Positions 11,397 through 64,000 of a stretch of 64,000 bases of DNA are shown here, one piece after another. This DNA is from a virus (taxonomy: Duplodnaviria > Heunggongvirae > Uroviricota > Caudoviricetes), in IMG/VR virus record IMGVR_UViG_2700989400_000004, positions 6,939 to 70,938 of that record. One strand, written 5' to 3'. The translations under genes were made by a program, and so were the position numbers. Position 1 is the first letter of the stretch, and each line of letters starts with the position of its first letter. The notes beneath the pieces were generated by a model. That model was not told where the DNA came from. It saw nothing but the letters and a program-made list of their open reading frames with translations, and searched no databases.

Positions 11397-11488
11397 ATGG
11401 GTAGTTTATTGTAAAATATATTTATATTCAATGCGTTATGTTTTATTTTTGATTTTGATTTATCAATTTGGTCACTATTTGGTACACA

Positions 11489-11516
11489 AAAAGAAACGAG
11501 GCGTTAGCCTCGTTTC
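11489..11516 (-). terminator. intrinsic terminator downstream of tail-fibre gene
   Basis: Stem GAAACGAGGC/GCCTCGTTTC with GTTA loop; T-run on minus strand (ttctttttgtg) just after the tail-fibre stop. Confidence 0.5.
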
Positions 11517-11545
11517 GCGCGGCGATGTTCTTCGCACATCACCTT

Positions 11546-13630
11546 TTACTCTTCGCTTCCGGTCAACTGCTTAACAAGCGCAACCAGTTCGCTTACCTGA
11601 TTTTCAAGCGCGGTAATGCGTGCATCTTGAGTAACTATGGCTATATCTTGATCCTTACATACTCTGACGAGATATCCAACGATGCCGGAGTAATTAACAC
11701 CCAAAACAATTTTTTCACCAGTAAGCACGGTGCCGTCACTTGTCGGTCCTGGCATCTCTTTTGTTATTGTTACTTCGCGAACTACTTGCGGCAATATCTT
11801 TTGCCATTCCTGTGCTATAACACCAGCGCACGCCCTATTATCACCAATAAAATTGAATGTATATCCGTTAACGTGCTGCAATAATTTTCTGGCCTCCTGT
11901 ATTTCCATAATATTTTCTTTTTCATTTATATCTGATGTTTGTGTTAATTCTGAGCAGGAGACTTTACCGGATGTGAAGATATCTGCGGTTGATGTTATTT
12001 TTTGTGAGAAGTTGGCTGTTGCTGTTACGTTCATTTTTCCAGCAAATACAGCGTTGGAGTCCGACTGAAGTTTTGTTTTTGCTCTTACTGTACCTGCGGT
12101 TATTGTTGTTGGCGATGATAACTGCTCCGCATAGGATTGCGCATTGGCTTCTGATTCTGCGGCTGCGGCTGCTGCTGCTGCTGCGTTTTCCGCTTCAGAT
12201 GTTGCGGTGGCGGCACGCTCTTCAGCCAGCACGCTGTAACCCTCTGCAGCGTCTCTCGCGGCTATGGCTTCATCCCGCGCGCTGGTCGCTGTGTTAGCGG
12301 CGCTGGTCGCGGCGGTCGCGGCACTGGTAATGGTAGCCGCCTGTTCAGTTGCAGTGGTTGCCTGCGCCACTGCTTCATCGCGGGCCGCTTCAGTGGCGGT
12401 CTGCGCGGTCTGTGCCGCTTCTGCGGCTTGGGTGGCGGCGGTTGCTTTTTGGGTTGCTGTATTTACGGCGGCTGATATCTTCGATTCGTCTATAGCAATA
12501 CTACTAGCGCTTGCTTCCGCTGCTTCTGCGGCGGTTTCTGCGTCGTTTTTATGCTCAAGCGCTGCGGCGGCGGCAGTGGTTGCCTCATTCGCTTTTTGGG
12601 TCGCTGTGTTAGCGGCGCTGGTCGCGGCGGTCGCGGCACTGGTAATGGTAGCCGCCTGTTCAGTTGCAGTGGTTGCCTGCGCCACTGCTTCATCGCGGGC
12701 CGCTTCAGTGGCGGTCTGCGCGGTCTGTGCCGCTTCTGCGGCTTGGGTGGCGGCGGTTGCTTTTGCTGCCAGTTCTTTTTCATCGATAGCGATATTAGCG
12801 GCGGTTGTTTCTGCTGCTGCGGCTGCGGCTTCGGATTTCTCCGCTTCTTCCTTCGCATACATGCGCAATTCATAAACAGCGGCACGATCTGCCGCTACGG
12901 CTTCGGCATCTGTATTGGCTGCTGCGGCGGCTTGGGTGGCGGCTGACGCCTGTTCAGTTGCTACTGTTGCTCGTTCAGTTGCGACGACTGCTCTCGCGGT
13001 AGCTTCGTCGCGTGCTGCTTCGGTAGCAGTCTGCGCGGTCTGTGCGGCGGTGGCGGCATTGGTGGCGGTAGTAGCTTGTTCGGTCGCTACGGTTGCCTGT
13101 GTGGCGGCGGTGGCGGCTTGTTCACCAGCCAGCACGCTGTAACCTTCTGCGGCATCTTTCGCGGCAATAGCTTCATGCCGCGCGGCGGCGGTTGTTTCAA
13201 CGTCTGCGGCGGTGGCGGCGGCGTTGGCGGTTGATTGCGCTGTTTCTGCCTGAATAGCGGTTAACAGTGCTTCTACCTGCGCGGCATCACCATAATTTTT
13301 CCAGTATTCAACGGCGGCATAGATCTCTGATTCCTGCCCGGTGAAATAGCGTAATGCTTCCGCTACGTCTTGCGCCAGCCCGTCAACTGAGATCGAATCG
13401 CACAGTAAAATACTGTAAGCAGTACCCGCCGGAATATCCGGTGATGCTGCCGGGGTTATAGATAATTCCGTTTCACTGACAATTTCAGTGATGGAAAAGA
13501 TCTGAATAGGGTCGCTTTTTACAATAACTGTGCACCCCACGCGGATCATGGATAAGGGTGCTTTAAAATTTGTACCCGTCCCGGTCAGCGTGTTACCGGA
13601 TACGGCAATACTTCCAATGGTGTAGATCAT
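11546..13630 (-). CDS. tail fibre protein with Ala/Thr-rich repeat rod
   Basis: 694-aa ORF; long A/T-rich internally duplicated segment; C-terminal globular domain (…GYTFNFIGDNRACAGVIAQEW…); last gene of tail module. Confidence 0.7.
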   Translation of the reverse strand: MIYTIGSIAVSGNTLTGTGTNFKAPLSMIRVGCTVIVKSDPIQIFSITEIVSETELSITPAASPDIPAGTAYSILLCDSISVDGLAQDVAEALRYFTGQESEIYAAVEYWKNYGDAAQVEALLTAIQAETAQSTANAAATAADVETTAAARHEAIAAKDAAEGYSVLAGEQAATAATQATVATEQATTATNAATAAQTAQTATEAARDEATARAVVATERATVATEQASAATQAAAAANTDAEAVAADRAAVYELRMYAKEEAEKSEAAAAAAETTAANIAIDEKELAAKATAATQAAEAAQTAQTATEAARDEAVAQATTATEQAATITSAATAATSAANTATQKANEATTAAAAALEHKNDAETAAEAAEASASSIAIDESKISAAVNTATQKATAATQAAEAAQTAQTATEAARDEAVAQATTATEQAATITSAATAATSAANTATSARDEAIAARDAAEGYSVLAEERAATATSEAENAAAAAAAAAESEANAQSYAEQLSSPTTITAGTVRAKTKLQSDSNAVFAGKMNVTATANFSQKITSTADIFTSGKVSCSELTQTSDINEKENIMEIQEARKLLQHVNGYTFNFIGDNRACAGVIAQEWQKILPQVVREVTITKEMPGPTSDGTVLTGEKIVLGVNYSGIVGYLVRVCKDQDIAIVTQDARITALENQVSELVALVKQLTGSEE
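12286..12449. repeat. direct repeat copy 1 inside tail-fibre gene (~164 bp)
   Basis: Near-identical to 12600-12763; encodes repeated …AAQTAQTATEAARDEAVAQATTATEQAATITSAATAATSAANTAT…. Confidence 0.6.
12600..12763. repeat. direct repeat copy 2 inside tail-fibre gene (~164 bp)
   Basis: Near-identical copy of 12286-12449, offset 314 bp in the same frame. Confidence 0.6.
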
Positions 13631-13663
13631 CGCAATGACTCCATTATGTTAATTAACGGAATA

Positions 13664-13678
13664 ATTCTACCATTTTGT
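13664..13678 (-). promoter_or_regulatory. conserved motif TTTTGTGATCTGYGT upstream of late gene (copy 1 of 3)
   Basis: Same 15-mer at 19964-19978 and (1 mismatch) 25932-25946, each under 50 nt upstream of a minus-strand start (tail fibre, L, tape measure). Confidence 0.35.
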
Positions 13679-13812
13679 GATCTGCGTTGCATTTTATGCT
13701 TGCACAAAATGTATTTATTGATTTATGCCAATACAATAAATCATTTACAGTGAATGTAACTTGCCACAATTTATGATGTAAATTATTGGCGTAAAAATAA
13801 AAACAATGCATA

Positions 13813-13836
13813 AAAACGGGGCTTATGCCCCGTTTT
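13813..13836. terminator. bidirectional intrinsic terminator after J
   Basis: Perfect hairpin CGGGGC-TTAT-GCCCCG flanked by T/A runs on both strands, immediately after the J stop. Confidence 0.5.
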
Positions 13837-13840
13837 ATTT

Positions 13841-16800
13841 TTATGCTGTAGTTGATGCGCTAAATGATCCTGTTCCTCTTGATACTAGCATTGTCGGAGA
13901 ATACAAAGCCATACAATATGAGTAGCCTTCTGATGCTGATGTTTGTGGGCAATATATTTCCCCGGTAATCCTTGATGTTGTTAAACCAGAAAAAGCGCAT
14001 TGCACTGTTAATGTGCATCCACCATAAGGTACGTAGTATTGAATTGTTTTACTTTGACCTCCGCAACTAAACGTTACGTTATAAGTTGATCTATATTCAC
14101 CAGATGTCAATGTAATCGTTGCCATAAGCATAACTGATTTCGTCAATGCACTGGTTGTGCTGTCGTTATATGTGATGGTTGCTTTATAACTTCCGTTATA
14201 CCCAAGTACTCGATCTGGACCAACACCCATGTTAGCAACGTCACCAACAAATGATGTGGCTTCAACTACTCCCTTAAATTTACCGTCAGTTGCGTTAATA
14301 GTACCATTAAACACCCCAGAATTAGCGTATACCGTGCCGCGTACTGTTACGTTATTAAATTCAGCGTTACCATTCTTATTAATCATCCACCCGGCGGAAC
14401 CGGAAACATAATTGGATGATTGGATTTGCTGCGCAATTTTTGCGGTAGTAATCGATGCGTCTTTAATAAACGCTTCGCGCACATACATTGCACCATTCGT
14501 AACATAGAAAGGTGTCGTATATGTGCCGTTTGCCGCCGTCATTAACACAAAGCGGTCAACAAGGAAAATGCACTGCGATTGTGTGCTTGTGCCGCTGCCA
14601 GTCAGGCCAAGCGAGATACCGGAAAAATATTTCATTCCGTTACTGTCTGCGGCGATCTTAACGCTCCACGTTGCCGACATGTCTGATTCAAGGCTGGTGA
14701 TAGCGGTTTTGTTTTCCTCAATTGATACTGATTGCCCCTCAATTGACGCCGTGATACTTTCGATCTGTGTGGCGGTCGATTCCTGGTAAGACGTAAACGC
14801 TTCGCTCCACTCCGTAATCGACGCCTCGTTTGCTTCCAGTGATGCGCTAATCTGCGCAAACTGTGTAGCGTTGGCTTGTTCATGTGTGGCTAATGCCTGA
14901 TCCACGCTGCTGATCGCTGATGAGATATCGCCGTCTACTTTCGCCTCAAGGTTATTGATGGATTCAGCCGTGGATGATTCCAGATCGGTGATTGTCTGGT
15001 TGATCTCCGTTAAGCTGGCCTGGATATCCTCGTTTACCTGGCTTTCCAGTTTTTCGATTGATTGGCTTGTTGAGCTTTCAAGCGTCGCGATGGTCTGCTG
15101 TAGTTCGGTTACGTTAGCGCTGATTTCGTCATTAACCTTGCTTTCAAGCGTGGTAAGCGCCTGCGCGGTCGCTTCCTTCTCTGTAGCAATAACTGAATCA
15201 ATGCGCTCGATTTCCGCCTTCGTTTCTGCTTTCTGGTTTTTATATTGCGCCGTTAACGTGGTGCGGGTGCTGGTGTTAGCCAATGAGTTATTCATAAGCG
15301 CAATGGCTGCGTTTTGCAGGCTGGCGCGGGTCTGCATTAGCTCGTTTTCTTGCTCCGTCAATTCTACGCTGATTTCGTTAATCTGGCTTTCATGCTCCCC
15401 GATCCCGTCCTCGTTGTTTTTTACACGTTCTTCCAGATCGGCGGTTGACTCCTTCAGGTCGGTAACAGCCTGGTCAATGTCTACCGTGGTTTGTTTCAGT
15501 TCTTCCACGTCACCCATTAAACCGCCTGTTACTTCGCCTATGGAGTCCTTGATCATGTTCTGGAATTGCTCGCCTTCCATAACTTCATTCAGCACGGCGT
15601 CTGTAATTTCCTCGAAGTTTTCGGAAGGTTTACCGCTGGCTTCGATAAAGTCAGATACACCGAAAGCGTTTTTTGTGCGCACGTAAACGTAATACGTATG
15701 GCCCGTTGCCATACCGCCGAAGGTCCATTGATACCCGCGCCCGGTGAATTGCGCTGATGTTGTTACCTGGCTGAAGTCAGTGATCTGGTTTTCTCCGGCA
15801 TAATAGAATTCGTAACTGGTATCGGTCGTTAGCGTGGTGCTGCTGATCGGGTAAACAGTCGCCTGGAAAACACCTGGCACCCAATTAACGCCGACCGGGG
15901 CCGCTGGCGCACCAATCACCAGATCTACAATACTTTCCGCCCCCTTCATGCCAGTGTCATTACGCCCGCGAATACCCAACGTGTAATTCCCTGCGTCGAG
16001 GCCATAAAATTCATAACGGTAATTCGTGGTTTCATAACTTGCCACCACGCGCCCGTCTGCGTTATATACGCGGATTTCGAAGGTCAGGGGATGCGTTGTT
16101 GTCTGCGTCTCCCAGGTGGCGCGGCATTGAACCGTTTCTGACCCAACGTTTACCACTTTCAAATTTTCGATGTTCGGGACACGGAAGTGATTTAGCGTGT
16201 CGCTACTGATTTCGAAGATTGCGCCTTCATCGACTACCGCCTGTTTGTTCGGGTCGTGCTGCGCGGCTTCGATGGTGTATACGCTGTTATTTTCGGTTTC
16301 GGCTACGCTGGTGATCCGGCATAAAACGGGTTTTGCTGCTTCAGTGGATACAGCGAAAACGGTCCCGTTACGAATCCACGCCGGGGCCGCCGCTAAGGTG
16401 ATCTCATTTCCATTCACCCCGGTGATCTGGTGTTTTTTAAATTTGCCATCACTATCGAGCAAGCTGATGGTGTCGCCTGCGGTGATGTATTCTGAATCAA
16501 CCTTATCGACCGTTATCACCTTGCCATTGTTCGCCACGATACGACCGCCTAAACGAGCGCCCGCGCGGTTATTGTCGAGGATCTCGATGATATCCCCTGG
16601 TGTAAAGTGAATCGCGTCACGGGCCATTTTAAACGTGAATTTTGACGGCTCGCGTTTTGCTGTTTCTATCAGCCACTTGCCCGCGCGGTACGCTTGCCCG
16701 CGTGATGTGCACCCGAACGCCTCTAACGTGGTTTCGTTGTAACCATCACGGGCGATCAGTTCATCGTCTGCTACATACTCTTTTGATTGCTCCCAGCCGT

Positions 16801-18022
16801 TCTTCGGGTCAGTCCAAGATACGATCACGGCGTTATAACATTCCGCACGGGCGATACTTGAACGAGTAAACGCGCCATCAACGACATTTGCATTTGTAAT
16901 AGTGGCGATCGGATCTTGTGGCGCATCGATCATCACCGTAAGGCGTTGTCCGTCCCATAGCGCCATACCTCTGAACATCCCGGCGATATTGTCCAGTAAG
17001 TCGCGGGCGCTCATCTGCTCTGTAATGTACGCATTAAGCGTAACGCGCGGCTCAAGGCCGCCGTAACCATCATTGACTAACTGGTCGCAGTATTGGGAAA
17101 GCGTATATAATGCGCCGTCATCAACATCAATATAGCCAGCATGACGGGCAAGGCCAAAACGCTCGTTTTTAACCAGATAACGGAAGATCCAAGCGGGGTT
17201 ATTAGTGTACGCCTGCTTGAAGCCGCCAAGCCATAATCCTGAGTAAGTGCGCGTTTCCGGGTTGTAGTTATCAGGGATATCAACAATCAGCCCGCGGAGG
17301 TGATAAGTGCGGGTAGGCGTGTCAGCGTACTGATCATGGTCGATCACTGCGCCAGCTATAGCCGTGTGAGGGTAAGATAGGTTATCGTCGATAATTTCAC
17401 TGTAACTATTCCATCGTGTATTGTTGTTCAATAAATCGCCAGTGCTATCGGGTGTAATACGACGAACCCGAATATCGAACGGGCTTTCACTAGGTGCGCA
17501 AATAATATGAGACTCAAGATATTCACCGCTAATTTTACCGGTAATAGAAACGGCTTTAACAGGCGTCCATATCGTTGATGATGATGGTTTTACGTCAATC
17601 ATCATCATAACGGTTGAATTGTATTGATTCCCTTCATCATCGCTTTCTACAAGAACATCCACCCCAACATTCAACCTGACTCGCGTCACGTTGGGATCGG
17701 ATACAGTGCGAACTAACGGGGTGTCGTGTGTTACCTCGGTGTTAACCATAACGGTCGATTCAATAGCATTAAAACCATTGATCGGCGATTGGTTAAGTGT
17801 ACCAGGACGCCAGGCGACACTAACGCCGGGGATACTGACATGACCCGCAGTATCCGTAATAGGTGTATCATTAAGCATCACGCAGTTCAACGGCGCGGCA
17901 GCATTAACCGGACCGTAGATCGGGCCTTCACTCAATATATCTAATACGCGATAAAACTGTTTATGATACAAATTGTCATTAAGTAAATCTGGTGTGCTAC
18001 CGCCACCACCACCACCGCCCAT
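13841..18022 (-). CDS. J: host-specificity / central tail fibre protein (lambda J homolog)
   Basis: 1393-aa ORF; conserved J-type stretches (…LSEGPIYGPV…, …AFGCTSRGQAYRAGKWLIET…). Confidence 0.85.
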   Translation of the reverse strand: MGGGGGGGSTPDLLNDNLYHKQFYRVLDILSEGPIYGPVNAAAPLNCVMLNDTPITDTAGHVSIPGVSVAWRPGTLNQSPINGFNAIESTVMVNTEVTHDTPLVRTVSDPNVTRVRLNVGVDVLVESDDEGNQYNSTVMMMIDVKPSSSTIWTPVKAVSITGKISGEYLESHIICAPSESPFDIRVRRITPDSTGDLLNNNTRWNSYSEIIDDNLSYPHTAIAGAVIDHDQYADTPTRTYHLRGLIVDIPDNYNPETRTYSGLWLGGFKQAYTNNPAWIFRYLVKNERFGLARHAGYIDVDDGALYTLSQYCDQLVNDGYGGLEPRVTLNAYITEQMSARDLLDNIAGMFRGMALWDGQRLTVMIDAPQDPIATITNANVVDGAFTRSSIARAECYNAVIVSWTDPKNGWEQSKEYVADDELIARDGYNETTLEAFGCTSRGQAYRAGKWLIETAKREPSKFTFKMARDAIHFTPGDIIEILDNNRAGARLGGRIVANNGKVITVDKVDSEYITAGDTISLLDSDGKFKKHQITGVNGNEITLAAAPAWIRNGTVFAVSTEAAKPVLCRITSVAETENNSVYTIEAAQHDPNKQAVVDEGAIFEISSDTLNHFRVPNIENLKVVNVGSETVQCRATWETQTTTHPLTFEIRVYNADGRVVASYETTNYRYEFYGLDAGNYTLGIRGRNDTGMKGAESIVDLVIGAPAAPVGVNWVPGVFQATVYPISSTTLTTDTSYEFYYAGENQITDFSQVTTSAQFTGRGYQWTFGGMATGHTYYVYVRTKNAFGVSDFIEASGKPSENFEEITDAVLNEVMEGEQFQNMIKDSIGEVTGGLMGDVEELKQTTVDIDQAVTDLKESTADLEERVKNNEDGIGEHESQINEISVELTEQENELMQTRASLQNAAIALMNNSLANTSTRTTLTAQYKNQKAETKAEIERIDSVIATEKEATAQALTTLESKVNDEISANVTELQQTIATLESSTSQSIEKLESQVNEDIQASLTEINQTITDLESSTAESINNLEAKVDGDISSAISSVDQALATHEQANATQFAQISASLEANEASITEWSEAFTSYQESTATQIESITASIEGQSVSIEENKTAITSLESDMSATWSVKIAADSNGMKYFSGISLGLTGSGTSTQSQCIFLVDRFVLMTAANGTYTTPFYVTNGAMYVREAFIKDASITTAKIAQQIQSSNYVSGSAGWMINKNGNAEFNNVTVRGTVYANSGVFNGTINATDGKFKGVVEATSFVGDVANMGVGPDRVLGYNGSYKATITYNDSTTSALTKSVMLMATITLTSGEYRSTYNVTFSCGGQSKTIQYYVPYGGCTLTVQCAFSGLTTSRITGEIYCPQTSASEGYSYCMALYSPTMLVSRGTGSFSASTTA

Positions 18023-18035: not shown

Positions 18036-18566
18036 TTAACTTACAACATCTAAGGCGTCTTTATTATTGGTTGTGTCAATACCCAGGGAACCAACATTTG
18101 ACCCTATTTTCATTTCACCCAATAAGATTGGAACGGGTCGCCCCTGGCCTACTCTGTTTTCTACACTGGTGTAAGTGTTATTAGTGATGCGCCCATCCTG
18201 CGCACTTTCTGCTGATGTTTGCGGCTTCATGTTGCGATACATATAAATAGAATAAGCGACGCTCGCCACCGTAAGGCCAACCAAAAGCCAACCAACAAGA
18301 CCAATCCCAGCTACCCCGCCCTCGATTAACGGCGCGATAATAATTGTCGTTCCGTCTGGATATTTGTTATTAACAGCCACTACGCAATTTTTTTCATCAC
18401 AATCCCTTCCTGCGATCCGCAATCGTAATGGCGTACCTAAAAATGCTCGCTTAAAATCCTGATTTTGTGCAACCAGCAAGCGAAGTCCCTGCGCTGGTGT
18501 TTCGACATTTAGACACATTTTGCTGTAATATCTTCGGAAATTGCCCGTAAATCTAAATCTGAGCAT
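18036..18566 (-). CDS. I: tail assembly protein (lambda I-like)
   Basis: Position between K and J; hydrophobic central segment; start uncertain (alternative ATG at 18518). Confidence 0.55.
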   Translation of the reverse strand: MLRFRFTGNFRRYYSKMCLNVETPAQGLRLLVAQNQDFKRAFLGTPLRLRIAGRDCDEKNCVVAVNNKYPDGTTIIIAPLIEGGVAGIGLVGWLLVGLTVASVAYSIYMYRNMKPQTSAESAQDGRITNNTYTSVENRVGQGRPVPILLGEMKIGSNVGSLGIDTTNNKDALDVVS

Positions 18567-19240
18567 TTGTTATACCTCCATACTGAATGCATTTGCTTGA
18601 TATACGCGGGGCGCATTTGCTCTCTACGACTTAACAAACCAGCGATATCGTGATGTAAAATAGTGTTATTGCCTAAATAAACCATTGCGTGGCACGGATC
18701 AGCGCCTTTAAACGGCTGCCTGATGATCACGTCCCCCGGCTGAATACTTTGCGCGTCAACCTGGAAAAACCCGTTTAACGGCAAGTTTTTTAAATACAGG
18801 TTTTCACCACGTAACCACCACCCATCAACGCTTTCGAAGTCAGGCAGATCCACACCGCAAAGGTGATAAGCATCCCGAAAAAGCGTGTAACAATCAGTTG
18901 TCCCGTATATGAATTTTCGGCCTAACAGGTGCGCCACCGGACGGAATTTTCTAATCTTCCCGCCGGAGTATAAGAACCACGGCAGCCCGGAAATAACTTG
19001 CCGTTGTCGATCTATTGCCGACAACACCGGAACATCATCAACGTGAGAGTGAAAAACGGCAGTTATAACTCCTAACTCGTCCGCCTTGATGTAATCGTCC
19101 GGCGAGATTTTGAAACTGTTGCGCGGCGTTTCTGACACGTTAGCGCACGGGTAAAAATACTCGTTATCTACTACTAATCCGCAGACTTCCTCAAACGGGT
19201 GAGCGGCGGCATAACGAGACATTAAATCTTCCATCACCAT
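18509..19240 (-). CDS. K: tail assembly protein (lambda K-like; NlpC/P60 + JAB-type)
   Basis: …AAAHPFEEVCGLVV… and …HSHVDD… motifs as in K-family proteins; start placed at internal ATG 19240 to avoid long overlap with L. Confidence 0.6.
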   Translation of the reverse strand: MVMEDLMSRYAAAHPFEEVCGLVVDNEYFYPCANVSETPRNSFKISPDDYIKADELGVITAVFHSHVDDVPVLSAIDRQRQVISGLPWFLYSGGKIRKFRPVAHLLGRKFIYGTTDCYTLFRDAYHLCGVDLPDFESVDGWWLRGENLYLKNLPLNGFFQVDAQSIQPGDVIIRQPFKGADPCHAMVYLGNNTILHHDIAGLLSRREQMRPAYIKQMHSVWRYNKCSDLDLRAISEDITAKCV

Positions 19241-19242
19241 AA

Positions 19243-19947
19243 TCACCCTACCTTGCTGGAACCAGGGAAACAGGCGATCGGTAGCGCTGCTGGACGCGGG
19301 AAACGTAAACGACAACCGCTTAGGCGGTGACTGCATCTATCTAAATTCAGATCATTGGTTGGTACATCCTTATCAGTAGCCACCGGACCGCCAGAATACA
19401 TACATCCATCGCCCCTATATTGCCATTGACAAACATCCGCCAGGATAGTCCGGCCTGGGATAATCGCTTTATCTGCGTCAATCGGCGTTGATAACTCATA
19501 CTGAACCTGATCTGCTGTTTCTTCTGCCATTGCTTCAATGACGTAAAAAGATACAGCCTCAATAGATGGATCTGCGTCTGGATTGCCGTTAGGGAAGTTA
19601 ACGGCGTCCAGGTATTTAACCTCCACCTGGCGGCGCGTAACCTTCATTCCTCTAAGGTCGTTGAAATCGTTATTCATCCCCGTAATGAGTCCGCCGATAT
19701 TGGCTACAGCCATTTGAGGACGTGAATAAACGCCCTCGTTTTTCATTTCGAAGCCAGTAGCCTCGATCGGGTAGCTGTTGTAAGTTAATCCCTTCCAGAT
19801 AACCGGGCCGTAATAGCCATTCGCGCCGGAATGGAAGCGGATAACCTCGCCACCCAGGGGCGACAAGTCCAGTTCGAACAAGTCAATCACCGCGCCCACA
19901 CCAGCGTCCACGGAATCAATAATCATCTCTGTAGGTATATTGCGCAT
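19243..19947 (-). CDS. L: minor tail protein (lambda L-like)
   Basis: C-terminal Cys motif (…CQWQYRGDGC…CSHRLSGC…) as in lambda L; ATG at 19947 with GAAGGTGAG SD. Confidence 0.7.
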   Translation of the reverse strand: MRNIPTEMIIDSVDAGVGAVIDLFELDLSPLGGEVIRFHSGANGYYGPVIWKGLTYNSYPIEATGFEMKNEGVYSRPQMAVANIGGLITGMNNDFNDLRGMKVTRRQVEVKYLDAVNFPNGNPDADPSIEAVSFYVIEAMAEETADQVQYELSTPIDADKAIIPGRTILADVCQWQYRGDGCMYSGGPVATDKDVPTNDLNLDRCSHRLSGCRLRFPRPAALPIACFPGSSKVG

Positions 19948-20232: not shown

Positions 20233-20244
20233 GAGGTTAACGAA

Positions 20245-55357: not shown

Positions 55358-56005
55358 TTATGGCAGATTTACGATCTTCGCGTCCACCACCACGCCAATA
55401 ATTTTTGATTCAGGATTTAGCGGGATTGGTGGATACAACGGATTAAGCGAACGTAAAAGCCTTTGACCTCCATCAATAATCAACTGTTTAAACGTCGGCG
55501 TTTGCCCTTCCTCCAATTGGGCTATAACCAGTTTGCCGTCAATAGCTGGCGCGTGTGGATCAACAAGTATCATCGTTCCCGCCGGGATGCTCAATCCTTG
55601 CGGCGCGTTCATCGATTCACCTTTTGCAACCAGCCAATAACTATCATCCGAACAAATCACGCTAGTGTTAACGTGCGGTAATGATGCGCGTTTTGCTTCT
55701 TCCATGTAGTTTCCTGCGTCTTTCCAGTCAATCACCGGATAACGCCCTACGTCGAGCGGTGGCGCTCCCGGCAGTGTATTAGAAAGTGAATCATCAATAA
55801 CCATCCCATCATGTGTGACCGTAAACTGCCGACGACCAAGCGCCCGCATGATCCGCGCAATATCTTCCAGGTTAGGCTCACGACGACCATTTAGCCAGTG
55901 TGATAAGCCGCCCTTTGTGATCCCCATGAGATCCGCCAATGAATCCTGGCTCATACCTTGCGCCCGCATGAGTTGTTTAGCTAAGTCATACCATTTTGTT
56001 TTCAT
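55358..56005 (-). CDS. cI-like repressor (HTH + LexA-type S24 peptidase domain)
   Basis: N-terminal HTH (…QDSLADLMGITKGGLSHWLNGRREP…) and C-terminal autocleavage domain (…VAKGESMNAP…AGTMILVD…); divergent from replication operon. Confidence 0.8.
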   Translation of the reverse strand: MKTKWYDLAKQLMRAQGMSQDSLADLMGITKGGLSHWLNGRREPNLEDIARIMRALGRRQFTVTHDGMVIDDSLSNTLPGAPPLDVGRYPVIDWKDAGNYMEEAKRASLPHVNTSVICSDDSYWLVAKGESMNAPQGLSIPAGTMILVDPHAPAIDGKLVIAQLEEGQTPTFKQLIIDGGQRLLRSLNPLYPPIPLNPESKIIGVVVDAKIVNLP

Positions 56006-56313
56006 GTCGCTACCCTATCGCCCTAAAAAGTTTGATGCAAGTCACAAAATGTATTTTTCAAGTCTTGACCTAAAAACGCCATTCTGTAAACTTGCAGACA
56101 AGGTAAAGCCAGACTTGCAAGGATGCAAGAAAAAAGATAAGGGAATAGCACAAAAAGGCGCATACCTTAAAAGCTCTTTAAAAACCCGGTGTCGCTGCGA
56201 AGCGAAAAACAAATATCACGCAACGGCGGGATCTGTTGAGCGGTCAATCACTGCTATCTAATGCTAATGGGATACCCGCCCGCGCGTTCATTTTAACCAT
56301 AGGAGAAAAATCA
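56006..56313. promoter_or_regulatory. divergent immunity promoter/operator region
   Basis: 308-bp gap between divergent repressor and rightward operon; repeated CTTGCAAG-type palindromic half-sites (56036-56130); no cro-sized ORF found. Confidence 0.5.
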
Positions 56314-56568
56314 ATGAGTATGCACATGATGACTGAAGCCTGGAAAGTGGAACTTAACAGCCCGATTCAAAAACTTGTCTTAATGGCTTTGGCTGAAAAG
56401 GCGGATAACCGCCGCCACGCCAGGGTGTCACACCAAGAAATCGCAAAAATGTGTGAACTTCCTGTAAATACGGTAATGGTTGCTATCGACGGATTAACGC
56501 ACAAAGGATTTATTTGTAACCCTTACCCGGTAAATGACGTTTACCTGGTAATGCTGCCGGAGGAATGA
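56314..56568 (+). CDS. HTH DNA-binding protein, first gene of rightward operon (Cro/CII position)
   Basis: 85 aa from MSMHMMTEAW…; AGGAG SD; HTH-like …HQEIAKMCELPVNTVMVAIDGL…. Confidence 0.5.
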   Translation: MSMHMMTEAWKVELNSPIQKLVLMALAEKADNRRHARVSHQEIAKMCELPVNTVMVAIDGLTHKGFICNPYPVNDVYLVMLPEE

Positions 56569-56571: not shown

Positions 56572-57639
56572 ATGAAGTGGTTTAAGCATGATAGCGATGC
56601 GAACCGCGATGAAAAACTTCAAAACGTTTTGCTCGATTATGGTCTGGAAGGATACGGTCTTTATTGGTACTGCCTCGAACTAATCACTTATGACGTAGAT
56701 CAGCATAATCTCACTTTCGACCTTCGACATGACGCGAGAATCATCGCGCGAAATGTCGGTTCGACTGAAAAACGTGTAGAAGAAATGATGAAATACTTCA
56801 TCGAAATTGGTTTATTTGAATGTTCTCAAGGCCATATAACATGCTTAAAGTTATTGAAAAGGCTGGACCAATCAATGACTTCTAAGAGTGGTTACAGAGC
56901 TGCTATAAATGCAGCAAAAGAACAATTCAAATTAGAAAAGTTAATCAACCCAACGCCAAAAGGTCATGATAGGGTCATGACCGGGTCATGGCAGGGTCAT
57001 GAATTAGAATTAGAAGAAGAATTAGAAGAAGAAATAGAAAAAGATATATACACTTCGTGTATTAGCGAAAATGAACAAAAAACGGTCAATCAGGGGGGTG
57101 ACTTTCAGATAAGCGAAGCCGCCTTGCGTTGTCTGGCTTTCTACAACGAAAAAGCAGGATGCAAATGTCGTGACGCTAAACCATTCATCGAACTACTGAC
57201 AGAAACAAAAACACGTAAGGCATATACGGAGGAAGAGATCACATTAGTAATTGAGTGGGCTTTAACACAATGGCATAGCCGGAGTGGAGTACCTAAGCCT
57301 ATCAACATTTGCCGGGTAACTAAGTTTGATGGGTATCTGGCTGATGCTGAACAATGGCGAAGAGTTACAGCTACTGTTAACGCTGCTGTCGTGGTATCAG
57401 CATTTAACCAGACATTTGACGGCCTGTTACCGCCTGCCGAACTGGATCGGGATTTGGAACGTAAGATCTATGCGTTCACTGACTACCTGAAAGACAAAAG
57501 CATCACTGGCTTTATCGCTTACTTTGAAGCGTTCAAAAACACGGCTTCAGATTTTTACTTCGGCAATGGCTTTACCGCGACACTTGATTTCCTACTTAAA
57601 CCAAAAACGCTACGTGACACGCGCGCGGGCGTTCTTTGA
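56572..57639 (+). CDS. replication initiator / replisome organizer (O-like)
   Basis: N-terminal MKWFKHDSDANRDEKL… typical of phage replisome-organizer N-domains; conserved phage replication C-terminal region; contains iterons. Confidence 0.75.
   Translation: MKWFKHDSDANRDEKLQNVLLDYGLEGYGLYWYCLELITYDVDQHNLTFDLRHDARIIARNVGSTEKRVEEMMKYFIEIGLFECSQGHITCLKLLKRLDQSMTSKSGYRAAINAAKEQFKLEKLINPTPKGHDRVMTGSWQGHELELEEELEEEIEKDIYTSCISENEQKTVNQGGDFQISEAALRCLAFYNEKAGCKCRDAKPFIELLTETKTRKAYTEEEITLVIEWALTQWHSRSGVPKPINICRVTKFDGYLADAEQWRRVTATVNAAVVVSAFNQTFDGLLPPAELDRDLERKIYAFTDYLKDKSITGFIAYFEAFKNTASDFYFGNGFTATLDFLLKPKTLRDTRAGVL
56961..57050 (+). repeat. putative replication origin: four iterons plus AT-rich tract inside O-like gene
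   Basis: GGGTCATG repeated four times at 11-bp spacing (56962-57001), then aattagaattagaagaagaattagaagaagaaatagaaaaag. Confidence 0.6.
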
Positions 57640-57874: not shown

Positions 57875-58025
57875 CTACCCAGCCTGATTAAATTCGATTT
57901 TAAGCCACTTTTTAGCGCCACTGACGCAATAAGACACTGCAACATGTGCAAACGTGTTACGCGGTGGGATTTTGCGTTGTAGCGCGTCTGAGGCGTTATA
58001 TAGAAAATTAAGAAAGGAGGTATAT

Positions 58026-59081
58026 ATGATTGCTACTTATCATATGAAACTCAATTGTAAGGACACGCAATTACTGTCTGTTAATAATCTGGTTTCTGAA
58101 CTTAAGATTGATAGACTTAAATCATTTGTTAAATATTCTGATCTTTACGGATTTGAGGAATACAAGGATTTTATTATTGATGGTGATGATGTGTATATCA
58201 CACCTATAACGTTTATTAGATTCGTTACACCTGGTAAATATAGACATTATGAATATAATGAAAATTGGGTTAAGCCAGTTATTGAATCTTGTGGATTAGT
58301 TGACTTGCAAGATGTCTTTAATAAATATTCAAATAATACCAAAAAAGATAGTCCTTACGCTTATAATTATATTTTATGGTGTAACAACTATGTTGAAACG
58401 AGTGATACTCCTGGTCGATGTTCTGTGTATGTGTCAAAAGAAGATGCTGAAAAGTATAAAAAATGGTTGTTCGTTACTCGCGGAGTATCAATAGAAAAAC
58501 TATGGGTAAGGTTGTTCCATTCAAGCGATATTGCAGATCCAGATACGTTTTTAGCTGAACACCTCAATAATGATGAGTTTACCATTGATTTAAATATTGA
58601 ATATTTTATAGTTAAAACAAATTATGGATATGAAAGGTATATTAGCGATAAGATAGCAGAAAAGTATCATATATGGGGTGAAAGTAAAGGGCTTAGTAAT
58701 AATTTTGAGTGCGGGAATTATAACGACATAGAAAACTTTATTAAATTAAAAAGCGACAAGGATGTAATTGAGGAAATAAAAAAGGAATGCGACGCGAAAT
58801 TATCAGAAATGAGCGGTCATTGTAAAAATATGATTAGAAAGCGTTATGAACACGCTGGTTTAACTATGTATGAAAAACTAAAGGGTGTTAAATTAATAAG
58901 GCAATATCCTGTTAATGTTGCTGGCAATAAGTATTTTATCGATGGCTACGATCCTGTGAATAATGTTGCTGTAGAAATTGATGAATCACATCACAAACGG
59001 CAAGTAAAAAGCGATGCGATAAGACAAAAATGCATTGAAGATTATTTGGGGTGCAAGTTTTTTCGTTGTGCTATATCCTGA
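58026..59081 (+). CDS. AT-rich gene: protein with C-terminal restriction-endonuclease-like domain (candidate defence/abortive-infection protein)
   Basis: 351 aa from MIATYH…; perfect AGGAGG SD; visibly AT-rich versus flanks; C-terminus …YFIDGYDPVNNVAVEIDESHHKRQVKSDAIRQKCIEDYLGCKFFR… resembles DUF559/Vsr-type endonuclease fold. Confidence 0.6.
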   Translation: MIATYHMKLNCKDTQLLSVNNLVSELKIDRLKSFVKYSDLYGFEEYKDFIIDGDDVYITPITFIRFVTPGKYRHYEYNENWVKPVIESCGLVDLQDVFNKYSNNTKKDSPYAYNYILWCNNYVETSDTPGRCSVYVSKEDAEKYKKWLFVTRGVSIEKLWVRLFHSSDIADPDTFLAEHLNNDEFTIDLNIEYFIVKTNYGYERYISDKIAEKYHIWGESKGLSNNFECGNYNDIENFIKLKSDKDVIEEIKKECDAKLSEMSGHCKNMIRKRYEHAGLTMYEKLKGVKLIRQYPVNVAGNKYFIDGYDPVNNVAVEIDESHHKRQVKSDAIRQKCIEDYLGCKFFRCAIS

Positions 59082-59115: not shown

Positions 59116-60234
59116 ATGTCACAAAGAAAGATCAGCGATGAACAACTGATCGCTGAGTACGAGAAGGGGAAAACTTACAAGCAAATAGCCGAAGAATATG
59201 GAATGGCAAAACGCAACGTCGAACGGCTGGGCGCACGGCTGGCGAAGCGCGGTTTAATATCCACACGCCGCGCGCCTGGTTTTGGTGTCAATGGTGAATC
59301 ATTGCTCGTTGATAAGGATGGCAATGTGATTATGCGCTGGATTAAAACAGCACGTGATCGCGATGAAATGGAAAGGCTAATGCAAGCGGCTTGCGATGCA
59401 TTCACTGAAGAGATACCCCGCGCGGAGGCCGTGCCAGTGCCTGAGATTGATTTCCAAAAAAGCCTGGCCCTTTATCCGGTGTTCGATCTTCATATCGGTG
59501 CACTTGCGCACAAGGCGGAATGCGGCGAGAGCTACGACACCGGGATCGCTGAACGCGTACTAAATGATTTCTTCGACTACGCGGTAGGCACTGCGCCAAT
59601 GTCTGAAAAGGCTGTTTTGCTGTTGGGTGGGGATCTACTTCATTCTGATGGGATGATCCCGGTTACACCAACAAGCGGTCATATTCTTGATCAGGATAGT
59701 CGCTACGCAAAACTTGTTTACGTGGCGATCCGGTCGGTCCGGCGGGCGGTCGGGAAGATGTTACTAAATCATAAGGACGTCGAGATCCAGGTGCTTAGCG
59801 GAAATCATGATCAATCGGGGATGATTTGGCTACGTGCGGCGCTGGCGGCTTTTTACGAAGATGAACCACGCGTGACGGTTGATGTGTCCCCTGCTATCGT
59901 CCACCACACGCAGTACGGCAAAACATTCCTTGCCTATCATCACGGGCACACTATCAAAAAACCCGAAAATTTGTTGGCGGCCTGCATCTCTGACTGGCGG
60001 GAGGATTTCGGCAAGTCGGCGGCGGTTTACGCCCACTGCGGGCACTGGCACCACCAACGGCTAATTGAATCATCGTTAGGCGTTGTTGAGTATCACGGCA
60101 CGTTAGCGGGTAAAGACGCTTATTCAACGAATGGCGGCTGGCGGTCGCGGCGGCTGGCGGCGGTAATAATTTACAGCCCGGATTATGGGGAAATCGGGCG
60201 CTTTGTTTATTACCCTGAATATCCCATTTTGTAA
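59116..60234 (+). CDS. HTH domain fused to calcineurin-like metallophosphoesterase
   Basis: N-terminal HTH (…KTYKQIAEEYGMAKRNVERL…); phosphoesterase motifs DLHIG, GGDLLH, GNHD, GHWHH; CCGGAGG SD. Confidence 0.6.
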   Translation: MSQRKISDEQLIAEYEKGKTYKQIAEEYGMAKRNVERLGARLAKRGLISTRRAPGFGVNGESLLVDKDGNVIMRWIKTARDRDEMERLMQAACDAFTEEIPRAEAVPVPEIDFQKSLALYPVFDLHIGALAHKAECGESYDTGIAERVLNDFFDYAVGTAPMSEKAVLLLGGDLLHSDGMIPVTPTSGHILDQDSRYAKLVYVAIRSVRRAVGKMLLNHKDVEIQVLSGNHDQSGMIWLRAALAAFYEDEPRVTVDVSPAIVHHTQYGKTFLAYHHGHTIKKPENLLAACISDWREDFGKSAAVYAHCGHWHHQRLIESSLGVVEYHGTLAGKDAYSTNGGWRSRRLAAVIIYSPDYGEIGRFVYYPEYPIL

Positions 60235-60252: not shown

Positions 60253-61674
60253 ATGGTGACTGAGCAAATAAACTCATTACGCCAGGAACGGGAAGCGGCT
60301 GTGATAGGCGGCCTCCTGTTGGGCGGGCTTACCCCTAACGCGCAAGATGTTCTTGCCACGCTCGATCCTGAAGTCTTCACCATTCCACTATATAAACGAG
60401 CGTTTGAGATCATCCGGGCGCAAGCCAGAAACAGAAACCTTATTGACGCGCTGATAGTCGGTGATGAAATCGGTAGCGAAAATTTCATCCCGTTAATGCA
60501 AACGGCGCGGTCGTGTCCATCTGCTGCCAACCTGAAGGGGTACGCCACGCTATTGCAGGAGGAATACCAGCGGCGGCAAATGTTGGAACTGATGGAGGAT
60601 ATCCGCTACAAACTGGAAACCGGGACGCTAGAAGTTGTCAGAGAGACGATGAAATATTTTGATTCCCGGTATTCAAAATTAAAAACAACGAAAGACAAGA
60701 TTATTCCGGTGCTGTTGCGCGACGCGGTACAGGAATATACGGAAGTCTTAAGTAAACGTATGGAATGTGGTGTCAATTCTGACAACATCAAAACAGGGAT
60801 CGAACCACTCGACGAAATGTTAGGCGGTATTAACGCTACTGATCTGGTGCTTATCGCCGGACGCCCTGGGTCTGGTAAATCGGCGTTGGCGTTGGCAATT
60901 GCCCGCGCGGCGGCTGAACGTCCATACCCTGGCGGAGAAGGCCAACGGGTCGGCGTTTTGCTGTTCACGCTTGAAATGTCGCTCGATCAGATGACTGAAC
61001 GCGCGATCGCTGGCGCTGGGAACTTATCAACGGATTGCCTACGTAATCCGGTAAAACTGGACGACGAAGGATGGGCGCACGTTGCGCAGGGAATGAGCGC
61101 ACTTGCCGATCTCGACGTGTGGATTGTTGACGCATCGCAGTTAACGGTCGAGGAAATACGCGCCACCGTCGAACGGATGAAACAGGACCATCCTAACCTG
61201 GGAATGGTAATGATTGACTACATCGGGTTAATGAAGCTGGCTAAGGCCGAACGTCATGATCTCGCGGTAGGGCAATTGTCGTGGTCATTGAAAATGATGG
61301 CGAAAGAGTTGCGCGTGCCAGTGGCGGCGCTGGCGCAATTATCCCGCCGCGTTGAAGAACGACCGAACAAGCGCCCGAACAATTCCGATCTGCGTGATTC
61401 CGGTAATCTGGAACAAGACGCGGACCGGATCATCATGGTCTACCGAGACGGCTACTACAACGAACAATCAGTTGCCCGCGAATACATGGAGATCATCGTT
61501 TCAAAAAACCGTCACGGGAAAACGGGGACTGTTTACCAGCGGTTTGACGATAACGGCAATATCATTCCATGCGACCAGGCCCGCGCCGCGTCCGCTTGCA
61601 TCCAGTCAATGCAACAACGTCCGGCGACAAGCCGATTCTCCCCACGAAATAACCAGAATAACGCATCTTTTTAA
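60253..61674 (+). CDS. DnaB-family replicative helicase
   Basis: Walker A …LIAGRPGSGKSALALAIA…, …DSGNLEQDAD…, …KNRHGKTG…; CCGGAGG SD. Confidence 0.85.
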   Translation: MVTEQINSLRQEREAAVIGGLLLGGLTPNAQDVLATLDPEVFTIPLYKRAFEIIRAQARNRNLIDALIVGDEIGSENFIPLMQTARSCPSAANLKGYATLLQEEYQRRQMLELMEDIRYKLETGTLEVVRETMKYFDSRYSKLKTTKDKIIPVLLRDAVQEYTEVLSKRMECGVNSDNIKTGIEPLDEMLGGINATDLVLIAGRPGSGKSALALAIARAAAERPYPGGEGQRVGVLLFTLEMSLDQMTERAIAGAGNLSTDCLRNPVKLDDEGWAHVAQGMSALADLDVWIVDASQLTVEEIRATVERMKQDHPNLGMVMIDYIGLMKLAKAERHDLAVGQLSWSLKMMAKELRVPVAALAQLSRRVEERPNKRPNNSDLRDSGNLEQDADRIIMVYRDGYYNEQSVAREYMEIIVSKNRHGKTGTVYQRFDDNGNIIPCDQARAASACIQSMQQRPATSRFSPRNNQNNASF

Positions 61675-62311: not shown

Positions 62312-62529
62312 GGCGAGTAATCTTTTATTCAGTTGAAACATTCATTGATGAATCACATTTTCGTTTTCCGTGCGATTCTCGCGGCGCGATGGTTTATACA
62401 CCTCCACTAATGCGGAAATATAAATACGTAAAATTTAAACGGGTTTTTGTTCCAATTCGTGAAGCGTTGCAGGCGCTGCGCGGGGAATTAAGAAACACAA
62501 TGCGGATTGTGTAAAAAAAGGGGGGGATT

Positions 62530-62757
62530 ATGAACAAGGATTTAGATTTGACCGTGGAGGATTTAAGCACTATTGCGGAATACAAGCGCGGCGATGATCC
62601 TGATAAACCTGTTACGGTTGACCTGAAATATTTAAAAGGCGCTTTTATGACTTCTTCAAGATTAATAAGCCTTGATGCGATTATAAAGGCACGCTGGGAA
62701 AGCTGGCAGGAATACAAAGCGAAAAATAAGGCGAAAAGAAATAATGCGGCAAATTAG
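62530..62757 (+). CDS. hypothetical protein (75 aa)
   Basis: Strong GGGGGG/AGGGGG SD; overlaps ninB start. Confidence 0.45.
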   Translation: MNKDLDLTVEDLSTIAEYKRGDDPDKPVTVDLKYLKGAFMTSSRLISLDAIIKARWESWQEYKAKNKAKRNNAAN

Positions 62758-63175
62758 ATTTGAGATAGTCAACGACGCCGTGAAAGAAAATGCTATCAGG
62801 CAGATAAGAGAGATCCAGCCTGATAGCAAAAGCCCGCTGATAATTACCATCCAGGAGAAAACCCGCTCGCTGAGTCAAAATAGCCTTTTGTGGGCGCTGT
62901 TAACCGACATTAGCGATCAGGTTAATTGGTACGGCAAGAAGCTGTCGCCGGAAGACTGGAAAGCGGTATTTACTGCCGGGCTTAAGAAATATGGCGTCGT
63001 CCCTAACCTGGATAAATCCGGCTTCGTTGTATTGGGAACGTCTACAAGCCGGATGAGTAAATCGGAATTCAGTGAACTAATCGAATTAATTTACTCGTTC
63101 GGTGCTGAACATAATGTCCAATGGTCTGGTGATACGAAATTAAATGAGGAATTCATAAAACGCTGGGGGCAATAA
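62744..63175 (+). CDS. ninB: NinB (Orf) recombination protein
   Basis: …LIITIQEKTRSLSQNSLLWALLTDISDQVNWYGKKLSPEDWKAVFTAGLKK… closely parallels lambda NinB. Confidence 0.8.
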   Translation: MRQIRFEIVNDAVKENAIRQIREIQPDSKSPLIITIQEKTRSLSQNSLLWALLTDISDQVNWYGKKLSPEDWKAVFTAGLKKYGVVPNLDKSGFVVLGTSTSRMSKSEFSELIELIYSFGAEHNVQWSGDTKLNEEFIKRWGQ

Positions 63176-63352
63176 TGGCGCGTTATTACATGGCTAAACC
63201 TACAGGAATTTTGTATAAGGTTGATGGCGAATATGTTTATTACTTCCACAACCAGGCGCGGGAGTGGCGATTGTGTCACGCGCACTTCAAGCACGAAATA
63301 GAAAATCACCCTGAATACTTTATCAAAGTTGACAATGTAACGGTGGCGTAAT

Positions 63353-64000
63353 ATGGCAAATAAAACACCTCGTGCAATAGGCACAATGCTTCACAGGTTC
63401 CGCGTTGATATTCCGCCTTTCGAAGTGACAACGTTTTCGAGCTATTACGATTTTGGTACGGAGTATTACGCAGGATCTAAGGTTGGCGGCGAATCTTATA
63501 CGTTGATGGCTAATACGTGGCGCTTTGTGCGTTACCCTGAAAAGGATGATGACGGCATGAATAAAGAAAGTGAAATCATTGATGAATTAATCAAAGATGA
63601 GCGGCATGATTGCGATGCGCCGGAAGTTACTGAATGGAAGCCAGGAGAAAAGCCTCCGTGCGGCGTGTGGCTTGATTGTTATTATCCTGATGGCTATCAC
63701 ATTGGGATTTTAATGTTTAAATTTATAGGTGATAAATACGGGGTATACACAGAAAAAGGCAGTATACAGAAAGAAAATGCTATTGAATGGGGCTTTTATA
63801 ATTATTATTTATACGTTGATCCGAAAGAAAAAGCGCTGGCGCAAATTGCGTTTGCGCTGGCTACGAAGGTTATTGGTGAGGATGCGGCGAAAGAGATTGA
63901 CTTTAACCGTGATAATGATTATTCGCGTGATTATCGCAATATGGCGCAAGCTATTATTGATGGATGTATCGGGCACGTTGAATACACCGGGGGCAAATAA
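63353..64000 (+). CDS. hypothetical protein (215 aa), ends at window edge
   Basis: Complete ORF with stop at 63998-64000; no recognisable family. Confidence 0.45.
   Translation: MANKTPRAIGTMLHRFRVDIPPFEVTTFSSYYDFGTEYYAGSKVGGESYTLMANTWRFVRYPEKDDDGMNKESEIIDELIKDERHDCDAPEVTEWKPGEKPPCGVWLDCYYPDGYHIGILMFKFIGDKYGVYTEKGSIQKENAIEWGFYNYYLYVDPKEKALAQIAFALATKVIGEDAAKEIDFNRDNDYSRDYRNMAQAIIDGCIGHVEYTGGK

Follow-up and report, generated by a model that had tools for sequence, protein, structure and literature searches.

The one-strand gene layout of a prophage at Escherichia coli abgT follows the gene organisation conserved among mEp021-like (mEpimmI) phages

How can the recombination, nin-type, late antitermination, lysis and structural genes of a lambda-related phage, which lambda divides between its strands, come to lie collinear on one strand? 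This question is raised by a stretch of 64,000 nucleotides of caudoviral DNA (positions 6,939 to 70,938 of IMG/VR record IMGVR_UViG_2700989400_000004; hereafter the window), for which an earlier note made from the sequence had proposed either a distinct genome organisation or a composite of two prophages fused by deletion. The analyses presented here indicate with high confidence that a single and complete prophage occupies the region. It belongs to the temperate E. coli siphophages of the mEpimmI (mEp021-like) group, is 54,142 bp in length, was integrated by its own tyrosine integrase at the 3' end of abgT and has the gene order that is normal for this group.

In an open reading frame (ORF) map of the window, 62 minus-strand genes account for 81% of the bases between positions 11395 and 56005 (44.6 kb), and plus-strand coding for 6% (11 ORFs in three small islands). 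Except for these islands, the minus-strand direction is unbroken from the tail fibre gene (11546-13630) to the repressor gene (55358-56005), and a run of plus-strand genes extends from about 56.2 kb to the window end. The minus-strand set comprises the genes for the repressor, an N-like protein, ERF, SSB, Dam, a Dcm-like methylase, NinF, NinG, RusA, Q, lysis, terminase, head, tail, J and the fibre. The repressor-to-tail run of about 44 kb claimed earlier was thus confirmed. That all of it lies on the minus strand holds for the core genes, but three plus-strand islands break the tail module; likewise, the plus arm contains the replication genes and NinB, but not only these, as it also carries a cro-like helix-turn-helix (HTH) gene, exonuclease-like and DUF559-like genes and several small genes. 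The guanine-cytosine (GC) skew is negative throughout the minus-strand block and flips to positive only at about 56–57 kb, at the strand switch. Apart from this change at the divergent promoters, no second compositional block was detected by GC skew in the window, and the discontinuities between two elements that the earlier note had suggested looking for were not found. Functional labels were checked with Pfam (HTH_3 and Peptidase_S24, ERF, SSB, Dam, NinG, RusA, Antiterm Q, NinB, DnaB, Lin1244-type initiator, Terminase_6C, portal, lysozyme) and PHROGs (N-like antiterminator of 96 amino acids (aa), 54593-54883; DNA methyltransferase family, 254 aa, 46853-47617), and hold independently of any phage annotation.

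The mEpimmI group was described in 2025 and comprises 48 genomes whose architecture is conserved and which share 50 or more syntenic core genes; for six isolates the sequence was obtained from purified virions, and 16 structural proteins of mEp021 were placed by mass spectrometry (PMC11893012). Its members, classed as non-lambdoid by the authors, have one common CI-like repressor (a repressor assay is among the published data), the N-like antiterminator Gp17 acting at nutR1, nutR2 and nutL, a reported GC content of 46%, and integration sites at ydaM, abgT or mppA depending on the integrase type (PMC11893012). Nucleotide identities of 81–87% over 49–73% of the query were obtained with mEp021, mEp010, mEp013, mEp044, mEp515, mEp554 and MagusPhagus. 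Against mEp021 (MH706966), megablast gave identities of 81.6–83.7%, and the aligned fraction of the in-window part of the prophage was 73%, both values lying above the inclusion thresholds of the group (coverage of at least 60% and identity of at least 70% to mEp021; PMC11893012). By tblastn, 69 of the 82 annotated mEp021 proteins were matched in the window, 67 of them in monotonic order and with consistent relative strand, each matched colinear plus gene of mEp021 lying on the minus strand of the window and each minus gene on its plus strand. The two matches that do not fit this order were an integrase paralogue (28% identity), which lies beyond the prophage, and an HNH gene of the mobile kind.

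Besides the order and strand of every matched gene, the prophage and the group have in common the immunity-group-I repressor, a Gp17 homologue with an arginine-rich motif, three nut sites, a Q-like protein, a structural module with a DUF6260 capsid protein, integration at abgT with the integrase type matching this site, and genome size and GC content (54.1 kb and 46.7%). The packaged genomes of the group measure 53.0–54.7 kb, as compared to 54,142 bp here. Related prophages with the same gene order were found in 35 of 5,426 complete E. coli genomes, the closest being that of RM9245 (a 22-kb stretch aligned over 87% at about 93% identity), and Gp17 homologues fell into just 45 clusters, with no source other than E. 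coli and metagenomes. The prophage appears to be an uncatalogued member of the group; its source contig LIVK01000004, part of a public draft E. coli genome, is absent from the text of the group paper (PMC11893012). The one-strand architecture is therefore not new but the conserved organisation of the published mEpimmI phages. A distinct genome organisation had been correctly recognised insofar as the layout differs from lambda, but it is not novel, as alignment to relatives revealed a known phage group with the identical gene order (the 67 colinear genes).

The ends of the prophage were located on the window and on the contig from which it derives (LIVK01000004.1; E. coli GCA_001420135.1), which is identical to the window over a 10,648-bp overlap:

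9945-11396, plus: abgT, shortened by the insertion from 508 to 483 aa, with the stop codon directly after the att core
11379-11394, no strand: att core TATCCGCTTATCTTTT, 16 bp, at the junction of host abgT and the tail-fibre end of the phage
64176-65411 (window-equivalent), minus: tyrosine integrase, 411 aa, preceded on the contig by a 72-aa gene beyond the window
65521-65536 (window-equivalent), no strand: second copy of the att core

The host flank (6075-11396) is E. coli abgR-abgABT at 99.6–100% identity, the match to the unoccupied abgT site ends at 11394, and the left boundary is a true att junction. The start coordinate of 11397 given earlier was accurate, phage DNA beginning at 11395. 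Past the second core (attR), the contig continues with the displaced 3' end of abgT, ogt, fnr and uspE, so that the prophage measures 54,142 bp from core to core. The same core is common to the empty abgT site, the window junction, the far junction of the E21845 prophage and attP of MagusPhagus, in whose packaged genome it sits between the integrase and tail-fibre genes. Since attP lies between these two genes in the phage genome, they come to lie at opposite ends of the prophage, and the integrase is missing from the window because the window stops 176 bp before it. The absence of an integrase from the tail-fibre end had been noted correctly, and the extension beyond 64 kb proposed in the earlier note located the integrase and the second core 0–1.5 kb past the window. 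Identity of the integrase reaches 98.1% with the MagusPhagus enzyme, 93.9% with that of E21845, which is of type II (abgT; PMC11893012), and 48.5% with that of the ydaM integrant mEp021. A tRNA scan found no tRNA genes in the window, and the att site is thus not of the tRNA type.

The regulatory features of the prophage were reconstructed from the sequence, using a terminator scan and the mEp021 annotation for nut sites and terminators. The immunity region and the genes to both sides of it are arranged as follows:

56006-56317, no strand: divergent control region with TTGCAAG-type inverted repeats, cro-side promoter and nutL
55358-56005, minus: CI/LexA-type repressor of immunity group I (Pfam HTH_3 and Peptidase_S24; 92.4% identity to Rep021)
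55352-55335, minus: terminator t1, directly after the repressor stop codon and kept in mEp021
55234-55206, minus: predicted early promoter, near-consensus TTGACT-17-TATATT, same hexamers in mEp021
54948-54914, minus: nutR1, with rrn-like boxA TCTCTTTAACAA and boxB GCTAC-TGAAAT-GTAGC
54593-54883, minus: N-like antiterminator, Gp17 homologue of 96 aa (72% identity to Gp17; PHROG 271, 'anti-termination protein N-like')
46853-54562, minus: early genes, including a gp18 homologue and many small genes
53802-54443, minus: ERF
53389-53802, minus: SSB
53094-53438, minus: anti-RecBCD-like gene
50121-50495, minus: HNH gene
48603-49091, minus: Dam
46853-47617, minus: Dcm-like methylase
46840-46805, minus: terminator t4
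46797-46770, minus: promoter-like TTGTCC-16-TATACT
46754-46722, minus: nutR2 (boxA 46753-46743; boxB CCGC-TGAAAT-GCGG, 46735-46722)
46513-46677, minus: NinF
45893-46588, minus: NinG
45477-45896, minus: RusA
44583-45311, minus: Q-like late antiterminator (Pfam Antiterm; 84% identity to mEp021 gp37, 33% to lambda Q and P22 gp23)
40551-40523, minus: weak promoter-like TTGTAT-17-TAAAAT, candidate late promoter
40486-40468, minus: intrinsic terminator t5, just upstream of the holin gene, positional equivalent of mEp021 TERM_5/t5
56065-56092, plus: predicted cro-side promoter TTGACC-16-TAAACT
56173-56204, plus: nutL (boxA 56174-56184; boxB 56193-56204)
56318-56568, plus: cro-like HTH gene
56572-57639, plus: Lin1244-type replication initiator
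57954-59081, plus: DUF559-like gene
59116-60234, plus: exonuclease-like gene
60253-61674, plus: DnaB helicase
62744-63175, plus: NinB
63353-64000, plus: gp03 homologue

The positions expected from mEp021 are occupied by all three nut sites, by terminators t1, t3, t4 and t5 and by the early promoter. The immunity region is about 91% identical to its mEp021 counterpart, and the nutL core (boxA and hairpin) is fully identical. A small gene lies between the early promoter and nutR1, further small genes occur in the plus arm, and Q and the lysis genes lie about 4 kb apart, with small genes in between. The N-like protein has an arginine-rich motif (R17, R19, R20, R21 and R24); the conserved arginines of Gp17 are R17, R19, R20 and R24 (PMC11893012). 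For mEp021, Gp17-dependent antitermination at three nut sites has been shown experimentally, as have terminators t1, t2 and t5 (PMC11893012). In the proposed scheme, the repressor gene stands at the strand switch and ends at t1, beyond which a promoter with nutR1 downstream on the repressor strand would lead into the Gp17 homologue, this unit running on through ERF, SSB and the methylases to t4. A second putative promoter with nutR2 past t4 would serve NinF, NinG, RusA and Q, and Q would allow transcription from the late promoter to pass t5 into the lysis, packaging, head and tail genes. Repressor, early-right, delayed-early and late genes thus share one direction, and the divergent promoter with nutL would drive the cro-like gene, replication, helicase, NinB and the small integrase-adjacent gene. 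On these predicted elements, the early unit repeats the leftward logic of lambda (cI-rex, terminator, PL, nutL, N). The promoter activities and the action of Q at t5 are what we infer from the sequence.

How this organisation relates to the classical one was assessed by tblastn of the window proteins against lambda (NC_001416) and P22 (NC_002371), which gave 10 and 9 matches, respectively, at protein identities of 27–57%. The lambda matches include J, K, L, M, I, NinB, NinG, Q and cI, and the identities to P22 were 57% for the helicase, 53% each for ERF and NinB, 51% for NinG, 42% for the repressor (to C2; 32% to lambda CI) and 33% for Q. The strands of the matched genes compare as follows:

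NinG, Q, lysis and tail M/L/K/I/J: minus in the window, plus in lambda/P22
repressor and ERF: minus in the window, minus in lambda/P22
replication initiator, DnaB helicase and NinB: plus in the window, plus in lambda/P22

The prophage resembles lambda and P22 in its CI-type repressor, divergent early promoters, antitermination of the N and Q types, nut sites with boxA and boxB, and a terminator just before the lysis genes. In contrast to these phages, the block [recombination...N...repressor / cro...replication...NinB] is inverted relative to [NinF, NinG...Q...lysis...structural], with breakpoints beside xis and between ninB and ninF, and the canonical order (int-xis-recombination-N-cI leftward and cro-replication-nin-Q-lysis-structural rightward) is broken, NinB being parted from NinF and NinG. 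Formally, the layout corresponds to the lambda/P22 order with one inverted block, and this inversion sets the recombination genes 5' of NinF-Q, keeps NinB together with the replication genes, makes the recombination genes co-directional with the late genes and brings Q within reach of the N-side promoter. Further differences from lambda and P22 are the presence of three instead of two nut sites, the location of the integrase beside the replication arm and on the opposite strand, and the approximately 4 kb of small genes between Q and lysis. A long one-strand arrangement is also known from the temperate Siphoviridae of Gram-positive bacteria of the Sfi21/phi11 type, which carry recombination genes (ERF, SSB), a RusA-type resolvase, the late regulator, packaging, head, tail and lysis on one strand and have a small divergent lysogeny module, with the repressor and integrase on the short arm and the replication genes on the long strand. 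Here, by contrast, the long strand carries the repressor and the short arm the replication genes. The Sfi21/phi11-type phages are not known to use antitermination of the N and Q types.

The regions preceding nutR2 and nutL are paralogous. The nutR2 side reads TTGTCC-N8-CCATTTTG-TATACT (46722-46840, minus) and the cro side TTGACC-N8-CCATTCTG-TAAACT (56040-56204, plus); in both, boxA GCTCTTTAAAAAYCCGG and a CGCTG...GCG hairpin follow, and the element CCATTYTG-TAWACT is common to the two cassettes. This paralogy holds in both phages examined, the window prophage and mEp021, and the cro-side copy has an additional insert of about 48 nt with TTGCAAG-type inverted repeats. The Q operon, cut off from the cro-side promoter by the inversion, would accordingly be equipped with its own copy of the promoter and nut cassette, which would account for the third nut site. 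Neither the duplication of the cassette nor the words 'inversion' and 'opposite' were found in the group paper (PMC11893012).

The preferred reading has to be weighed against other explanations of the locus. That the prophage is a defective group member, a cryptic remnant no longer making phage, could be suspected from the several modules that differ from mEp021 and from the absence of the gp80/gp81 (Lpp) cassette between J and the fibre gene. This is very improbable, however, because every matched gene is a window ORF whose alignment covers most or all of the mEp021 protein without apparent truncation, the prophage has both att cores and an integrase of full length, it is as large as the packaged genomes, and the absent genes fall in variable parts of the genome, Lpp being missing in 8 of the 48 published genomes (PMC11893012). 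A fusion of two prophages by deletion, with the replication genes and NinB coming from one of them and the recombination, nin, Q, lysis and structural genes from the other, had in its favour only the superficial mismatch with the lambda strand layout and the lack of an integrase in the window. Its probability is now negligible: the same order recurs in seven independently isolated packaged phage genomes and in the 35 complete E. coli genomes, no compositional break exists besides the skew switch at the divergent promoters, and a self-comparison revealed no second terminase, portal, repressor or other core paralogue. The single set of core functions, the single pair of att repeats separated by the size of a phage genome, and the position of the attP core between integrase and fibre in MagusPhagus refute such a composite. 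Equally hard to credit are a strain-specific inversion of an ordinary lambdoid early region in situ, for which the departure from the P22/lambda order by exactly one inverted block might speak, and an assembly artefact, as the arrangement is common to all group members including virion-derived genomes, the regulatory sequences fit the layout (three nut sites, duplicated cassette) and an independent public contig agrees with the window at every position of the checked overlap. Misassembly of the mEp records themselves is improbable, given the 35 complete E. coli genomes with this order.

Some points nevertheless limit the interpretation outlined above. Overall similarity to mEp021 (identity multiplied by aligned fraction) is only about 59%, and the N-terminus of the replication initiator, gp12, gp63, the C-terminus of J and the fibre are replaced (accessory modules replaced or absent are gp12, gp63, gp65/66, gp72, gp78 and gp80/81). 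The transcription-unit model rests on consensus matches and homology to mEp021, the elements at 46797-46770 and 40551-40523 being predicted promoters, and the single inversion is only formal, as these phages are mosaic and the layout may stem from module exchange. None of the evidence speaks against membership in the group or completeness of the prophage.

The structural, packaging and lysis genes follow the mEp021 plan, and the homologues of lambda J, K, L, M and I together with a tape measure protein are consistent with a siphovirus:

11546-13630, minus: tail fibre with S74 chaperone domain (Pfam Peptidase_S74), mEp021 gp82
13841-18022, minus: J, mEp021 gp79 (tblastn)
18036-19980, minus: I, K and L, mEp021 gp77-75 (tblastn)
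20002-21301, plus: island A, gp74, gp73 and gp71 homologues and small ORFs, in the same place and on the opposite strand in mEp021
21422-21971, minus: minor tail genes, gp70 homologue and M-like (31% identity to lambda M)
22066-22997, plus: island B, gp68 and gp67 homologues and two small ORFs
23031-25961, minus: tape measure protein, 75% identity to gp64 over 364 aa
26035-26985, plus: island C, a 64-aa ORF and a 245-aa ORF (26248-26985), in place of mEp021 gp63
26999-37196, minus: tail, head and packaging block
27728-28240, minus: major tail protein
30103-31152, minus: major capsid protein, family DUF6260
33770-35173, minus: portal
35230-36714, minus: TerL
36711-37196, minus: TerS
39287-40444, minus: lysis cassette with holin, lysozyme (39745-40236; Pfam Phage_lysozyme) and Rz-like gene (39287-39769; lambda/P22 Rz similarity)

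The distal tail genes J, I, K and L are 27–46% identical to their lambda counterparts, and the true start of the tape measure gene is probably an ATG near 25916. Plus-strand islands occur at the same places of the tail module in mEp021. The N-terminus of the 245-aa protein of island C, MKNVIKAALIGVMAFGLVGC, resembles a lipoprotein signal (lipobox read by eye); this protein belongs to no Pfam family and lacks a counterpart in mEp021. The tail-fibre gene contains internal repeats (12155-13231), seen as paralogous antisense ORF fragments in the self-comparison, and between J and the fibre gene the Lpp exclusion cassette is absent at 13631-13840, the pair of motif copies that flanks it (see below) being kept. 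Between TerS and the gp49 homologue, about 950 bp lack a long ORF, and 37287-38076 holds four small minus-strand ORFs (37–64 aa), each with a hydrophobic membrane-like segment. For the gp49 homologue itself (38147-38689, minus), Pfam gave no family, and the single kind of match was to a PHROG of unknown function. A RefSeq gene of the 'anti-CBASS protein Acb1 family' is present somewhere in the related prophage stretches matching 26–48 kb. HNH genes lie at differing positions among members (50121-50495, minus, in the window; gp10 and gp78 in mEp021; 1030-1557 and 8455-8922 in related locus L002; 5582-6097 in L010), which suggests mobile homing-type insertions.

A short motif, GTATACAAAATGG, is dispersed through the intergenic regions of these phages at about 18 copies per genome (17–18 in the window and mEp021). 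As ACAAAATG/CATTTTGT it has 18 copies in the window as compared to 4.7 expected, a number reached in none of 100 shuffles, and all copies lie inside the prophage (13671-60232). The extended consensus is GTATACAAAATG(G/T), 12–16 nt in length, and perfect palindromes ATACAAAATGTAT occur at 51173-51185 and 54581-54593. In mEp021 the motif is the most frequent 8-mer, with 16 of its 17 copies in the non-coding 12.4% of the genome (binomial P = 4e-14), and in the E21845 prophage 10 copies were found versus 1.2 expected; no enrichment was seen in lambda, P22, the shuffles or the host flank, by which an artefact of A/T composition was rejected. Positional counterparts in mEp021 exist for 13 of the 18 copies, and at the tape measure junction the arms are conserved and 6 of 18 spacer positions differ. 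One copy abuts the -35 hexamer of the early promoter (55237-55244), and others overlap the spacer and -10 hexamer of the cro-side (56079-56090) and nutR2 (46772-46783; motif 46775-46782) promoters. Copies are also found at every junction of tail genes and plus-strand islands (20015-20062, 21990/22061 and 25958/25984), as a pair between the fibre gene and J (13671/13704), at 54584-54591 and 51175-51182, and about 15–25 nt 5' of several start codons. The motif is not mentioned in the group paper (PMC11893012).

An ordinary sigma-70 promoter was rejected as the general function of the motif, as no -35 hexamer is found next to it at a fixed distance and several copies lie within 15–25 nt of the start codon, too close for a promoter to fit downstream; such a role may still apply to the copies providing TATACT or TAAACT as -10 hexamers. 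Tentatively, the motif could be a regulator-binding site, possibly an operator of the repressor. With respect to covariation of motif and repressor, even the Gp17 relative that diverged most among those retrieved (64% identity) is accompanied by a repressor of 99% identity, the family being of one immunity type. In mycobacteriophages L5 and Bxb1, stoperators are short asymmetric motifs that occur in many copies throughout the genome, nearly all of them intergenic, mostly co-oriented with transcription and also at early promoters. The mEpimmI motif is likewise short, asymmetric, multi-copy, almost exclusively intergenic, genome-wide, mostly co-oriented with transcription and present at early promoters, but the repressor is of the LexA/CI-type S24 family and not of the L5 gp71 type, and some motif copies are palindromic. 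Taken together, it is conceivable, though rather doubtful, that a P22/lambda-like early-right operon was split at ninB|ninF with a paralogous promoter and nut cassette for each half, and that the dispersed motif acts as a genome-wide, stoperator-like operator for the CI-type repressor or another phage regulator; the two together could explain the control of the inverted layout. If true, a genome-wide operator for an S24-type repressor would be unusual in a coliphage.

The DNA at the left of the window has a separate origin. Positions 1-5900 are the right part of an integrative island of about 13 kb between smrA and abgR, with genes for a tyrosine integrase (4479-5729, minus), an HTH protein, AntA/AntB (3074-3874), YlcI/YnfO and an Icd-like protein. 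The integrase-like ORF at 4479-5729 was rejected as the prophage integrase: it is 28% identical to mEp021 Int, lies to the left of abgR and belongs to this island. In strain 442/2 the island is 99.9% identical and abgT is empty, which makes the island independent of the prophage; there it additionally carries DUF4222, DUF927, ProQ/FinO-family and PerC-family genes. The gene set of the island resembles that of a phage satellite. A 528-aa ORF (1495-3081, minus) has no Pfam family, and RefSeq gives only small genes at this place in 442/2. Between the island integrase and abgR lies the complete gene of the host small RNA McaS (5973-6068, plus; Rfam RF00115, 118 bits), the only Rfam match in the window at gathering thresholds, with none inside the prophage.

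As the architecture is a published hallmark of the mEp021-like phages, its presence here matters little in itself. The analysis removes the false lead of fused prophages with a missing integrase, and fixes the exact ends and the integration site of the element. It presents a so-called non-lambdoid group as one that derives formally, in each of its genes, from the P22/lambda plan by a single inversion, and in which the third nut site accompanies a duplicated early promoter ahead of the Q operon, and the dispersed intergenic motif hints at an undescribed regulatory layer. The inversion, the cassette duplication and the motif are modest leads that could easily be tested in the mEp021 system.

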